A stretch of 64,000 nucleotides of DNA from a virus: IMG/VR virus record IMGVR_UViG_3300020123_000589, positions 1 through 64,000 of that record; one strand, given 5' to 3'. The first letter of the stretch is position 1. Every line of letters starts with the position of its first letter. The translations under genes were made by a program, and so were the position numbers. The notes beneath the pieces were generated by a model. The model worked only from the letters and a program-made list of their open reading frames with translations. It did not search any database and was not told the origin of the DNA. Of the stretch, positions 3,772-33,122 are shown in pieces.

Positions 3772-4349
3772 GTAAAAAACAAAAGTATAGTGACAATTGT
3801 ATACTCGTAATTGATATCGAGGCAACATGCCTTGAAAACCAGAATGGTCAACCACAAGAAGAATTTATTAGCGAGATTATCGAAATTGGCTACGCCGTTC
3901 TGGATTACAAAATAAACGAAATTAAAGGAACGGGATCAATAATTATTAAACCCATACAATCAGTAGTTACGAAATTTTGTACTGATTTGACTGGACATAC
4001 TCAAGAATCTGTAGATCGTGGAATTTCTTTTGCAGAAGCATGTCAGACATTGCAAAGTGATTTGATGTCTGGTGGTAGGCTTTGGGCTTCCTACGGAAAT
4101 TACGACCTTGACATGTTTAAAAAGGAATGCCAGAGAAAGAACGTTAAGTATCCGTTTGTTGCACAGCACCTCAACATAAAAGCGATGGCGACTGTGCTTA
4201 ATGGCAGTGTTAATGGATTAGGACGCACCCTATCCTTACTCAAGATGAACTTTGAAGGGCGGCACCATTCAGGCCACGATGATGCTTACAACACTGCCAG
4301 GATTCTCCAGCATTACAAGAATAAATTTGGAGCACAAATTTTTGCATAA
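3768..4349 (+). CDS. DEDDh 3'-5' exonuclease (ERI-1/KapD-like)
   Basis: VIDIEATC, EIIEIG, YD..M, HHSGHDDAYNTA motifs. Confidence 0.85.
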   Translation: MSKKQKYSDNCILVIDIEATCLENQNGQPQEEFISEIIEIGYAVLDYKINEIKGTGSIIIKPIQSVVTKFCTDLTGHTQESVDRGISFAEACQTLQSDLMSGGRLWASYGNYDLDMFKKECQRKNVKYPFVAQHLNIKAMATVLNGSVNGLGRTLSLLKMNFEGRHHSGHDDAYNTARILQHYKNKFGAQIFA

Positions 4350-4539
4350 TTGTATCTGCGGTCATTCTGAAGAAGAACACGAAGCACATAAACTTAGTAT
4401 GATGAATCTAGGTGGTGTTCATTGGTGTAGAGGGTGTTCTATTGAAAATAGATTTTCTCCTCCAAACATGTTTCACGATTTCAAATTAGACAATCTCTCT
4501 TATATTGAAGATTTAGCTAAGAAAAAGGGCCTAATTTAG
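4342..4539 (+). CDS. DNL-tag family, Zn-binding class A
   Basis: CICGH..H..CRGC..HDFKLDNLSYIEDLAKKKGLI; TTG start inferred (ORF track begins at 4252). Confidence 0.7.
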   Translation: MHNCICGHSEEEHEAHKLSMMNLGGVHWCRGCSIENRFSPPNMFHDFKLDNLSYIEDLAKKKGLI

Positions 4540-4564
4540 TTGATTTTTAGATGCAAAATAACCC

Positions 4565-4593
4565 TTGACAAACCTTCCTTTTTCTGCTATACT
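4565..4593 (+). promoter_or_regulatory. sigma70-type promoter
   Basis: TTGACA-17 nt-TATACT with TGn extension, intergenic. Confidence 0.85.
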
Positions 4594-4631
4594 TAAGAGA
4601 CAAGGAATAGAAGCAAAAAGGAGATCAAACT

Positions 4632-5216
4632 ATGACTCACAAGAGCGTAATTTTGTCTGCCATTGCCCTTGCTTCAATTCTTACCCTGGGGATCGAGAAA
4701 ATTATTTATTTGCCCAGCACAATGAAGGTGTATCGTCGTAATTTGAAGGATCTGCATTATTACAAAGAAGCTACACTCTTAACTGACTGTCTTTATCGTG
4801 AAGGCACTCCAGTCAGCACTAGAACGATTAAAGAAACTCTTGAAGCTATTGATAAGTTTGTACCTAAGTATTTTCCCAACGGTCCTTACACTCGTGAAGA
4901 TTTTGTAGCTATGGCATGGTTGGAATCTGGGTTTAATCAGTTTGAAGTGGGAACTCATGGAGAGAAAGGTATTTTCCAAATCATGCCGGATGAATACCAG
5001 GATAACAACATCAAATTAAATAAATACGATATTGCTACCAACACTGAACTTTGTATGACTGTTTTGCAAGCAAAGTTTCACAAATTTCCAGATTATAAAA
5101 AAGCCGTGATTGCTTACAATGGGGTTGTTCGAAATAAAAACGGCAAATGGTCAGAGAAGTATTGGAAAGGTTTTGAGAAGCGCAGATCTGTGGTGGATAC
5201 GTTATTTAATTCATGA
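4632..5216 (+). CDS. lytic transglycosylase (SLT domain) with N-terminal TM/signal segment
   Basis: AMAWLESGFN, GEKGIFQIMP, AVIAYNG. Confidence 0.8.
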   Translation: MTHKSVILSAIALASILTLGIEKIIYLPSTMKVYRRNLKDLHYYKEATLLTDCLYREGTPVSTRTIKETLEAIDKFVPKYFPNGPYTREDFVAMAWLESGFNQFEVGTHGEKGIFQIMPDEYQDNNIKLNKYDIATNTELCMTVLQAKFHKFPDYKKAVIAYNGVVRNKNGKWSEKYWKGFEKRRSVVDTLFNS

Positions 5217-5416
5217 GGATAAAAGTTTTATGCAGATGTGGGCATGAGAAACGGGAACACCAAAAAGATTATATAGTTTGCGTTGGATGTTTTACTAAAT
5301 ATGAAGGTTGGAAGAGGAACAAAAATACAAAAGCTTTGGAACTTGGATGTAGAAAGTTTGTTCCAGATAACCTGGATTACATAGAAAAGTTGGCAAAGAG
5401 TAGAGGACTTGTGTGA
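5213..5416 (+). CDS. DNL-tag family, class A
   Basis: CRCGH..H..CVGC..CRKFVPDNLDYIEKLAKSRGLV. Confidence 0.75.
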   Translation: MRIKVLCRCGHEKREHQKDYIVCVGCFTKYEGWKRNKNTKALELGCRKFVPDNLDYIEKLAKSRGLV

Positions 5417-31176: not shown

Positions 31177-31177
31177 T

Positions 31178-31897
31178 ATGAAAAAAGGTCAGTTAAAGCA
31201 ATTTTGTTCAAGAGGACATGATACTTTTGCAGTTGGGAAAGATAGAAATGGATATTGTAAACAATGCAAGAAAGAATGGCAGTCTTCTCCAAAGAATCAA
31301 TTTTGTCCTAAAGGGCATGATACATTTGTTACAGGAAGATACAAAAATGGACATTGTGTTGAATGCAAAAAAGAATGGAGTCGAGAATATATTATTATAT
31401 CACAGCCACAATTCTGTATGAATGGGCACGACACAAATATTTGTGGTAGACATAAAAATGGTAAATGTGCCGCTTGTGACAAACTTTCTAAGCAAAAAGG
31501 AAAAGAAAGAACTAATTTACATACCAAAAAGCGGTTATTGATTGATAGTTCTTTTAGGTTAAAAAAGAGATTACGCAGTAGGCTTAGAGAGGTTTTAAAA
31601 GAAAACAAAAAACAAGGTTCTGCCATTAAAAATTTAGGTTGTACAATCGAATTTTTGAAAAGGTATCTAGAGTTTAAATTTCATGATGGTATGACTTGGG
31701 ATAATTGGGGTAAAGTTTGGCAGTTGGATCATGTTGTGGCATTATGGAGATATGATTTAACAGACAAAGAACAATTCCTAAACGCCTGTCATTACACCAA
31801 TCTTCAGCCCCTAACTATTGAAGACCACAATAAGAAAAGCTCTGAAGATCTTAAAGATTTTTTTGCTCATCAAAGAAAATTAAAACTAAACGTATAA
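31178..31897 (+). CDS. HNH homing endonuclease with Cys/His repeats
   Basis: 3x QFCxxGHD..CxxC; GMTWDN..WQLDHV..HYTNLQPL..N..K. Confidence 0.8.
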   Translation: MKKGQLKQFCSRGHDTFAVGKDRNGYCKQCKKEWQSSPKNQFCPKGHDTFVTGRYKNGHCVECKKEWSREYIIISQPQFCMNGHDTNICGRHKNGKCAACDKLSKQKGKERTNLHTKKRLLIDSSFRLKKRLRSRLREVLKENKKQGSAIKNLGCTIEFLKRYLEFKFHDGMTWDNWGKVWQLDHVVALWRYDLTDKEQFLNACHYTNLQPLTIEDHNKKSSEDLKDFFAHQRKLKLNV

Positions 31898-32203
31898 TGA
31901 ATCCAAGAATAATCAACGATACATTTGAACAAGAGCAGCATATTTGTTCTTTTTGTGAGTGTCAATCTGGAAATCATCTAGTATTTCATCGTTGTCCTTT
32001 ATTCGACAATACTTTTATTTGTAGGGAAGATTGTCAAGTTTCTATGATGAAAGAGGATATCGATGTTCAAGTATCGGCTAAGCTTGGCAGACTTGTTACA
32101 AAAGAATTTATAAATGAAACATGCAGAAATTGCGGATTGAATAATGCTTGTCAAAATCAAAAACTTGCAGATCAATTAGAAAAAGGATTACCAGGAGATA
32201 ATA

Positions 32204-32860
32204 ATGGGACACAACCAGAAGGGCCAGCTAAAACAAGATAGCGACGAAGAAATTTCCCTTCCATCAAATGCCAATCCATTTGATGAATATGCTCACAATA
32301 CGTATGAAGAATTACTAGAAGAACGCATCATACTTTTGAATGGGGATATCAGAGAAAACATAATTGAAAGAGCAGCTATCCCTCTCATGCAAATGGCGCA
32401 AGAAAAAGGTCCCATTCAGATTTATGTGAATAGTTTTGGTGGGTCTATTAATGATAGCCAAGCCATCGTTGACATCATGCAAACGGTAGATAACCCAATT
32501 ATAACGATGGCTTTTGGTAAAGCAATGAGTGCTGGCTTCGATATCTTTTTAGCGGGTGATTACAGAATTGCATATCCAAATAGTTTGTTTATGTGTCACT
32601 CTGGGTCAGCTTCTTTGGGTCTTCAAACCCTCCCAGCATTAAATATTGAGGCCGAACTTCATAAAGAATACTTTAAACGTTGGTCATCGTTCTACGCATC
32701 CCGAACCCAGATGTCAGAGAAGGAATGGTTAGATATTTTAAATGTGGGTAATAACAGATATTTCTTTCCAGAAGAAGCACTTAAGCTTGGAATTGTACAT
32801 CATGTTGTTAGTCTTGGCAAGAAACCACCAATGAAACAAGTGCTTAAGATGAAATGGTAA
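32204..32860 (+). CDS. clpP: ClpP-family protease subunit
   Basis: LLEERIILL, YVNSFGG, AMSAG (Ser), FMCH (His), EEALKLGIV. Confidence 0.85.
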   Translation: MGHNQKGQLKQDSDEEISLPSNANPFDEYAHNTYEELLEERIILLNGDIRENIIERAAIPLMQMAQEKGPIQIYVNSFGGSINDSQAIVDIMQTVDNPIITMAFGKAMSAGFDIFLAGDYRIAYPNSLFMCHSGSASLGLQTLPALNIEAELHKEYFKRWSSFYASRTQMSEKEWLDILNVGNNRYFFPEEALKLGIVHHVVSLGKKPPMKQVLKMKW

Positions 32861-32864
32861 TTTT

Positions 32865-33122
32865 ATGAAATTGTATATAGTGACTCTTTTCAGCCCCTCT
32901 GGACTAAGTGACCAAATTATTAAAGTATTTTCCACCAAAGATAATTTGGATAAGTGGATGGAATGTGCTAGGTTGATGGATAGGGAGCTTTACGGAGATC
33001 AGGGTAGGGATGTAACGCAATCCTATAAGATTAAATCAGCCGATTTAGACAATCTTGATTTCATAGAGTTGTACGCTGATGCTAGAAGTCTTGGAGCCCA
33101 AGTTAAATCTAGTCAACCTTAG
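32865..33122 (+). CDS. DNL-tag family, class C
   Basis: LDNLDFIELYADARSL. Confidence 0.6.
   Translation: MKLYIVTLFSPSGLSDQIIKVFSTKDNLDKWMECARLMDRELYGDQGRDVTQSYKIKSADLDNLDFIELYADARSLGAQVKSSQP

Follow-up and report, generated by a model that had tools for sequence, protein, structure and literature searches.

Why do more than two dozen small, often dissimilar proteins of one phage end in the same short peptide? The question is raised by a 64,000-nt window, the whole stretch of DNA analyzed here, from a phage genome of 151,359 bp. A preliminary description had named 26 ORFs with this C-terminal "DNL" motif and one with an internal copy. A six-frame scan and ORF listing recovered all of them at the ORFs named, with C-terminal motifs starting from 4489 to 33048 and the internal copy at 13066, in the 12757/12826-13314 ORF. 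In the list below, entries rest on the scan and ORF listing unless stated, the zinc class was assigned by Cys/His pattern, and other heads (the part preceding the tail) by BLAST.

4342..4539, + strand: Zn-ribbon-like head and DNL tail (from 4489); database gene call P0036 has the same start
5213..5416, + strand: Zn-ribbon-like head and DNL tail (from 5366) (ORF, Cys/His pattern)
6843..7157, + strand: Cys-rich head and DNL motif (from 7044), then a 29-aa extension (ORF, head BLAST)
7182..7475, + strand: Cys-rich head and DNL tail (from 7410) (ORF, head BLAST)
12826..13314, + strand: larger protein with internal DNL motif (13066), then about 80 aa of probable helix; motif kept in orthologues
15285..15500, + strand: Cys/His head and DNL tail (from 15450) (ORF, Cys/His pattern)
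15475..15747, + strand: Cys/His head and DNL tail (from 15697) (ORF, Cys/His pattern)
17926..18138, + strand: Zn-ribbon-like head and DNL tail (from 18088) (ORF, Cys/His pattern)
18135..18362, + strand: Zn-ribbon-like head and DNL tail, PNL variant (from 18312) (ORF, Cys/His pattern, L001 comparison)
18812..19150, + strand: non-zinc "GDFV" head and DNLxYIExxxxL+xY-type tail (from 19091) (ORF, head BLAST)
19134..19508, + strand: non-zinc head and DNL tail (from 19446) (ORF, head BLAST)
20664..20849, + strand: Zn-ribbon-like head and DNL tail (from 20799), opening a seven-gene tagged run (ORF, Cys/His pattern, L001 comparison)
20846..20986, + strand: 46-aa protein with DNL tail (from 20927) (six-frame scan, ORF listing)
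20970..21293, + strand: non-zinc "GDFV" head and DNL tail (from 21243) (ORF, L001 comparison)
21286..21483, + strand: Zn-ribbon-like head and DNL tail (from 21433) (ORF, Cys/His pattern, database gene call P0034)
21480..21809, + strand: non-zinc head and DNL tail (from 21756) (ORF, head BLAST, L001 comparison)
21799..22185, + strand: non-zinc "GD" head and DNL tail (from 22114) (ORF, L001 comparison)
22157..22495, + strand: non-zinc head and DNL tail (from 22421) (ORF, head BLAST, L001 comparison)
23564..23800, + strand: Zn-ribbon-like head and DNL tail with a 4-aa insertion (from 23738) (ORF, Cys/His pattern)
24425..24634, + strand: Zn-ribbon-like head and DNL tail (from 24584) (ORF, Cys/His pattern)
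24631..24849, + strand: Zn-ribbon-like head and DNL tail (from 24799) (ORF, Cys/His pattern, L001 comparison)
24846..25130, + strand: Cys-free head and DNL tail (from 25080) (ORF, head BLAST)
25127..25567, + strand: phrog_28969-type head (residues ~15-127) and appended DNL tail (from 25517) (PHROG profile, BLASTP, AF2)
27241..27432, + strand: Zn-ribbon-like head and DNL tail (from 27379) (ORF, Cys/His pattern)
29197..29385, + strand: Zn-ribbon-like head and DNL tail (from 29335); the zinc-class member modeled by AF2 (six-frame scan, Cys/His pattern)
30113..30418, + strand: Cys-poor head and DNL tail (from 30368), overlapping the M50 peptidase gene start (ORF, head BLAST, L001 comparison)
32865..33122, + strand: weak DUF7336-like head and DNL motif (from 33048) with a 16-aa extension, directly 3' of the ClpP-like gene (ORF, profile scan)

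The motif is not a product of chance: across the whole genome, its strict form D-N-L-x-x-[IV]-E occurs 33 times in plus-strand ORFs against 0.11 expected from composition, and no copies of this kind were found on the minus strand. One extra in-window ORF match is probably fortuitous: it falls within the terminase gene, in an ORF of 64 aa that starts at 60890 in an alternative frame. Twelve further copies lie beyond the window, 11 at 112-151 kb and one (71328-71627) beside the capsid gene, bringing the count to 38 genome-wide, 37 of which sit among non-structural genes. The reported absence of the tag from the late region holds inside the window (33-64 kb).

Fifteen of the 26 in-window copies stop exactly 15 residues past the N, as K/R-x-K/R-[GN]-L-[IV]-stop. 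The conserved core is a stretch of about 7 residues, DNLxY[IL]E, six of which are constrained, three of these being invariant polar residues. The E never varies, and across the wider clade conservation ends immediately after it; in the subclade of this phage the next nine residues are also conserved and fixed in length, the 16-aa form that ends in RGLI being a derived state of that subclade. AF2 places the start of a helix at the tail N in two different heads (29197, of the zinc class, and 25127), in agreement with the N-capped amphipathic helix of about 16 aa proposed earlier, although clade-wide the core spans only about 7 residues.

Once stripped of their tails, the heads fell by BLAST into one large Cys/His cluster and many mutually unrelated clusters and singletons. 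The tail is therefore carried by a zinc-ribbon-like Cys/His family and at least ten heads unrelated by BLAST, which bears out the earlier count of at least three unrelated N-terminal architectures. A GDFV-type start is common to several of these "unrelated" heads, which may be paralogues that have diverged. The zinc-class pattern, C-x-C-G-H-x4-H ... C-x2-3-C ... H/C, is not that of a classical C2H2 zinc finger (C-x2-4-C-x12-H-x3-5-H): the spacing differs, Pfam hits are below cut-offs and there is no fold match. The zinc-class model had no significant structural match in the PDB (Foldseek), 48,161 PDB representatives (VIA-align), the ESM Atlas or BFVD; an Atlas feature search was empty, and the 25127 model had no fold match in the PDB.

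The head of 25127-25567 provides the clearest junction. It matches the phrog_28969 profile (E 5.4e-9; 34% identity over 113 columns), and its residues 22-127 match a Dru_SM1 protein by BLASTP (3e-12). Members of phrog_28969, hypothetical proteins of Seuratvirus, end before the tail; the 121-aa homologue of an E. coli Seuratvirus phage stops where the 19-aa linker and tail start. A head-only HMM also found three tail-less Zn heads among predicted ORFs of G001, a complete 192-kb relative with the IMG/VR record IMGVR_UViG_3300028666_000001. These comparisons support a modular element carried by apparently unrelated heads. A search for longer, fused forms of tagged proteins found none, which is weak evidence.

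The DNL tag is confined to uncultured phages of 118-192 kb, and its sequence differs between lineages. G001 carries 61 copies with the consensus DNLxYLE[WY], as against DNLxYIExLAKxRGLI, and this shift holds across different heads. In genome G000, 38 of 41 copies have I/V at position 6 and 32 of 41 have A at position 10, with D/T/S at position 4. In G001, position 6 is L in 53 of 61 copies, position 4 is E/K/R and position 8 is aromatic; LAKxRGLI is absent, and in this variant lineage the residues past the core are variable and charged. Orthologues with a phrog_28969 head have tails that match the consensus of their own genome. Set against L001, a relative of 99 kb, the tails agree at 9-15 of 16 positions and the heads at 29-71%, and identity is 47-89% for neighboring non-DNL proteins; on these alignments the tail is evidently more conserved than its heads. 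A lineage-specific shift shared by different heads argues for co-evolution with one common reader, although ancient gene conversion among tails could in principle also produce a concerted change.

The tail acts like an address label that can be moved between proteins and is read by one partner, and we infer that it binds one. Our preferred reading, to which we give somewhat less than an even chance, is a library of variable small effectors that share the tail as their docking or recognition peptide. The core D-N-L-x-Y-[I/L]-E would be the N-capped start of an amphipathic helix and an autonomous recognition peptide, lengthened in this subclade to a fixed 16-residue C-terminus, ...LAKxRGLI. Selection would have maintained it on the many different small heads, mostly hypervariable Cys/His mini-domains, onto which it was grafted, and one common factor that co-evolves with it would read it. 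Heads would supply diversity and tails a shared address, together forming a library of small effectors or adaptors that lies among the non-structural genes. Docking onto a common partner, as first proposed, gains indirect support from the concerted tail changes. The only complex prediction, of the N-domain (residues 1-232) of the phage AAA protein with a zinc-class member, scored 0.00 in a run without controls and counts neither for nor against binding.

The tail might instead be an intramolecular C-terminal helix that steadies very small domains, inherited within one fast-diverging, tandemly duplicating superfamily and read by nothing external. Tagged genes do stand in tandem runs (e.g., seven consecutive at 20664-22495), and the GDFV-type start could mark diverged paralogy. 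In the compact AF2 model of the zinc class, confidence peaks on the tail helix (pLDDT 92-94), which starts directly after the last putative metal ligand; the tail of this class may for that reason also be structural. In non-zinc 25127, tail pLDDT is about 74 versus 88-91 in the head core. However, the Seuratvirus form of the phrog_28969 head folds with no tail, tail-less Zn heads occur among predicted ORFs of G001, identical lineage-specific substitutions occur on different head types, and the constraint on the core exceeds what capping needs. We consider a purely structural role unlikely.

Somewhat more doubtful is a processing site or degron, with D-N-L-x-Y-[IL]-E as the non-prime side of a Glu-specific cleavage site, or as a turnover signal, for a phage or host protease. 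Tagged proteins would then be substrates (for timed removal, activation, or as virion cargo released from the tag) and not adaptors. The prohead proteases of T4 and phiKZ cut after Glu, and the invariant E, the end of wider-clade conservation right past it, and a motif that always lies 3-40 residues from the C-terminus would all fit. So would the phage core set, which includes two ClpP paralogues, a Cdc48/AFG2-like AAA protein, an M50 peptidase and a prohead-protease fusion; those of its genes tested are all conserved in DNL phages. Against this, the nine post-E residues are conserved and length-fixed in this subclade, an 80-aa region following the internal copy at 13066 is conserved, and at the usual pore-loop position the AAA protein has no aromatic residue.

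Tails might also bind one another and build mixed oligomers of paralogues, a reading to which we give little weight. The tail helix is amphipathic, with a hydrophobic face at positions 3, 5, 6, 9 and 15/16, and mutually binding tails would likewise change in concert within a genome. A clade-wide core of about 7 residues with three invariant polar positions is nevertheless atypical of a bundle or coiled coil, and in the variant lineage the post-core residues are variable and charged.

A nucleic-acid element (promoter, recombination site or RNA signal) translated by happenstance would suit the fixed position of the motif at the 3' ends of genes, where it often overlaps the start codon of the following gene, but is rejected as hardly credible, since all six Leu codons are used, information resides at codon positions 1 and 2 with third positions nearly free, and conservation tracks amino-acid classes. 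The codon-position analysis thus confirms that conservation is at the protein level, as the synonymous variation had first suggested.

A more specific form of the docking reading has dozens of hypervariable mini-binders each capture a different host (e.g., defense) protein, which the DNL peptide delivers to one phage hub, plausibly the conserved proteolysis set of two ClpPs and the Cdc48-like AAA protein, as a bacterial-virus counterpart of F-box/PRANC substrate adaptors. We regard this as improbable. The gene at 32204, put forward as a candidate partner, is a genuine ClpP family member and not a prohead protease, but nothing was found linking ClpP to the tag, and the phage encodes no PDZ, ClpS or ClpX-type AAA_2 domain. 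As regards the host, ClpP-like 2 shares 50-65% identity with ClpPs from many phyla, no DNL motif was found flanking those bacterial ClpPs, and a search with the BT1 transporter of the phage found no close bacterial relative.

Poxvirus ANK/PRANC and viral F-box-like adaptors are likewise viral and lineage-expanded, and join variable binding heads to a constant C-terminal element. Those elements are three-helix domains of ~40-50 aa that bind Skp1, whereas the DNL core has ~7 aa (16 in this subclade) and belongs to a bacterial virus; with a conserved element of 7-16 aa and no Pfam hit or sequence relation, the DNL proteins carry no such domain. The capsid targeting sequence of T4 internal proteins, encapsulin cargo-loading peptides and microcompartment encapsulation helices also are short peptides common to unrelated proteins that dock to one assembly, and the latter two can be C-terminal and amphipathic, like the DNL tail. 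The known tags differ in sequence, however, and that of T4 is N-terminal and cleaved while the DNL tail is mostly C-terminal. Known cargo-tag genes adjoin shell genes; of the DNL copies, only 71328-71627 lies beside the capsid gene. AAA+ machines also read short terminal peptides or helices, as in ClpX signals (ssrA-type, MuA-type), the SspB tail and p97 VIM helices. A MuA-type signal is a basic then hydrophobic end, which the ...K-x-R-G-L-I-COOH of this subclade resembles, and the phage has ClpP and AAA genes. Such an end is found in 15 of the 26 in-window copies and is missing from "LKxY" tails, the internal copy and the whole variant lineage, all 61 G001 copies included, which rejects a MuA-type degron on all members; the clade-wide DNLxY[IL]E bears no resemblance to any of these signals.

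The preliminary description had recognized no described family, and the profile searches it proposed agree. Among ~30 tagged proteins of both lineages, no Pfam-A or PHROG family covered the tail or the Zn-ribbon-like head above threshold, the best hits being sub-threshold C2H2-like and Lar-like matches (E 0.007-0.2). A tblastn search of 50,697 cultured phage records with a zinc-class member, a variant-lineage member and three other heads gave no match, and literature searches on motif strings and general terms found nothing relevant. Metagenomes hold hundreds of 50%-identity clusters of the tagged family.

At minimum, this is a new family, absent from Pfam and PHROGs. The tag is on about one in six genes of this phage, at 38 copies, and on 61 genes of its complete 192-kb relative, a large investment that has so far gone undescribed. 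Should the tail prove to be a docking label, one bait peptide could find the hub, after which each head could be matched to its target, giving a handle on dozens of "hypothetical" microproteins at once. The heads would then also offer a natural set of small, stable, diversifiable zinc scaffolds with a portable tag.

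The DNL tail, a shared C-terminal peptide with the core D-N-L-x-Y-[I/L]-E, recurs well beyond the window, which covers positions 1 to 64,000 of a 151,359-bp phage record. A six-frame scan with the pattern N-L-x-x-[IV]-E recovered all copies listed in the preliminary description, which had proposed about 27 tagged small proteins at 4342-33122. The window holds 26 near-C-terminal copies (4489-33048) and one internal copy (13066). One further in-window match, in a 64-aa alternative-frame ORF within the terminase gene, is probably due to chance. Twelve more copies lie outside the window:

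Tail copies in the rest of the genome, + strand: 71328, 112248, 112696, 113184, 115863, 126862, 128452, 129503, 130231, 133102, 148792, 150184

The + strand carries all sizeable ORFs of the window, and no C-terminal copies were found on the - strand of this genome. Amino-acid composition predicts 0.11 occurrences of the strict form D-N-L-x-x-[IV]-E in + strand ORFs; 33 were observed. Of the 26 tails in the window, fifteen stop exactly 15 residues past the N, with the ending ...L-A-K-x-[KR]-[GN]-L-[IV]-stop. IMG/VR lists the record as a provirus, 79% complete; the protein collection contains the contig in a 175,549-bp version.

A word-indexed search returned only about 30 relatives. When 1.84 billion representatives were searched exhaustively with a profile, 873 clusters scored E <= 1e-3, of which 107 reached <= 1e-10; the top 150 of the 873 measure 56-110 aa. 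Eleven representatives looked up are of metagenomic origin and are named "hypothetical protein" or not at all. As a degenerate DNA pattern, the full 16-aa tail matched four IMG/VR contigs out of 2.9 million and no others, all of them relatives of this phage with many copies apiece. In L030, an 8.5-kb contig with an orthologue of the 25127 head (the part N-terminal to the tail), about 23 of 32 small genes end in DNLxYLE[WY]..., without LAKxRGLI. Searching IMG/VR with this variant returned more contigs (118-192 kb), each with many such genes. The complete relative G001 (192,085 bp, with terminal repeats), of the variant lineage, has 61 copies, 61/61 on the + strand. Neither tail form was found among 50,697 cultured phage records.

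In this genome and G001, nearly all genes lie on a single strand throughout. The family A DNA polymerase has a UDG-like domain at its N-terminus, like SPO1-like Bacillus phages (about 30% identity), and the closest match to the capsid protein is that of Bacillus phage G (29%). A T4 Rnl1-type RNA ligase (11171-12298, named from the syntenic gene of L001, a closer 99-kb relative) and an HD plus P-loop kinase protein (19483-20667) look like a tRNA-repair pair, which suggests a role in defence against anticodon nucleases of the host. The BT1/MFS folate-biopterin-type transporter encoded at 125703-126869 is uncommon phage cargo; no close bacterial relative of it was found, and a search via this transporter and ClpP pinpointed no host.

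In about half of the tagged proteins the tail follows a Cys/His head of the pattern C-x-C-G-H-x4-H ... C-x2-3-C ... H/C-x-F-x-[LP]. The AF2 model of a member of this zinc class (62 aa, 31-sequence alignment) is confident (pLDDT 86.7), with D as N-cap and an 11-residue helix beginning at N. The other heads are as follows:

Cys-free heads, many opening with a "GDFV"-type strand, tail flavour DNLxYIExLxxLKxY: 18812, 19134, 20846, 20970, 21480, 21799, 22157, 71328, 126862
Additional heads: 24846, 25127, 30113, 32865

When 113 members drawn from this genome and its relatives were compared all-against-all by BLAST with their tails stripped, one big Cys/His cluster formed, and the remaining heads fell into many small groups or stayed single.

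The tail is a module rather than a piece of a single fold. The head of the 25127-25567 protein belongs to phrog_28969. Escherichia phage Dru_SM1 (Seuratvirus) has a 121-aa homologue of it that aligns with residues 22-127 and then ends; beyond residue 127 the tagged protein continues with a 19-residue linker and the tail. AF2 models this head well (pLDDT about 88-91); a short loop then leads to the tail helix (132-142), which is modelled less confidently (pLDDT about 74). The internal copy at 13066 is kept in orthologues, where it opens a long C-terminal region; therefore the core need not be terminal. A zinc-class HMM built on the head alone found 20 members in this genome, 20/20 tagged, and 14 in G001, three of which, as predicted ORFs, end just where D-N-L would start. 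The strongest rival reading, though unlikely, is a C-terminal cap with a purely structural role, within a superfamily of fast-diverging paralogues.

Candidate readers of the tail are the two ClpPs, the AAA protein and the M50 peptidase, all part of a proteostasis set encoded by the phage itself:

26769-27233, + strand: peptide deformylase
30415-31176, + strand: M50 peptidase, site-2-type
32204-32860, + strand: divergent ClpP-family protein
123551-124168: canonical ClpP
135880-137265: single-ring AAA protein, nearest the Cdc48/AFG2 D2 domain (E 2e-43 to PDB chains)

An 1184-aa protein adjoining the portal and capsid genes carries the prohead protease as its N-terminal domain, and the divergent ClpP was rejected for this role. 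The AAA protein lacks the usual aromatic residue at the pore-loop position. Its orthologue in the related record IMGVR_UViG_3300036766_000678 (36219-38624, - strand) is a single 826-aa open frame whose match is broken close to Walker A (about residue 241-244) by a ~350-aa insertion, possibly an intein. Between the M50 and ClpP-like genes lies a 250-aa protein (31145-31897) with three tandem C-x2-GHDT...G-R-x-KNG-x-C-x2-C repeats and an HNH-like C-terminus, probably a homing-type endonuclease. A second rival, a Glu-specific processing site or degron, seems somewhat less likely than the structural cap. The genome was found to encode neither a ClpX-type ATPase nor ClpS nor a PDZ domain. The AAA protein occurs in five of five related records and ClpP in four, the record without it being only 61% complete. 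Because the replication machinery is presumably largely conserved as well, we treat this conservation as context, not evidence.

Both lineages have the core D-N-L-x-[YF]-[ILV]-E in common, and its flavour differs per genome. Numbering from D = 1, position 6 in this genome is I or V in 38/41 copies, position 10 is A in 32/41 and position 4 is D/T/S. In G001, position 6 is L in 53/61 copies, position 4 is E/K/R, position 8 is aromatic and position 10 is A in only four. The zinc class, the phrog_28969 head and the 113184-type head occur in both lineages, each with a tail matching its own genome's consensus; the G001 counterpart of the DUF7336-like head of 32865 has K at position 4. The ancestor therefore had the tag on several heads already, and the tags on these heads have changed in concert since. 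Such change is predicted if the tags co-evolve with a single partner, or among themselves; tail-tail association, the latter case, is the least probable of the three main rivals. In the comparison with L001, 9-15 of the 16 tail positions match, and heads match at 29-71%, vs 47-89% identity for untagged neighbour proteins. The conserved 85-87-aa protein at 113184-113447 (G001 170005-170262) has ...K-[KE]-[KR]-G-[LV]-I directly before the D/N-N-L motif, with the usual tail halves in swapped order. A nucleic-acid signal is ruled out by the codon data: aligned tail DNA (n=39) holds almost no information at third codon positions and uses all six Leu codons, so selection acts on the peptide.

The motif strings are absent from the literature searched, and nothing described in the libraries and papers searched corresponds to this sequence family, to the scale it reaches in a phage or to its fold. 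The general design, an expanded viral gene family with variable heads and a constant short tail, is already known from other systems, for example PRANC/F-box families, the T4 capsid targeting sequence and encapsulin cargo tags. The best-supported mechanism, which we favour tentatively, is that the tail is a transferable recognition peptide carried by a library of small variable proteins. A single co-evolving factor would read the peptide, and the tagged proteins may serve as its adaptors, cargo or substrates.
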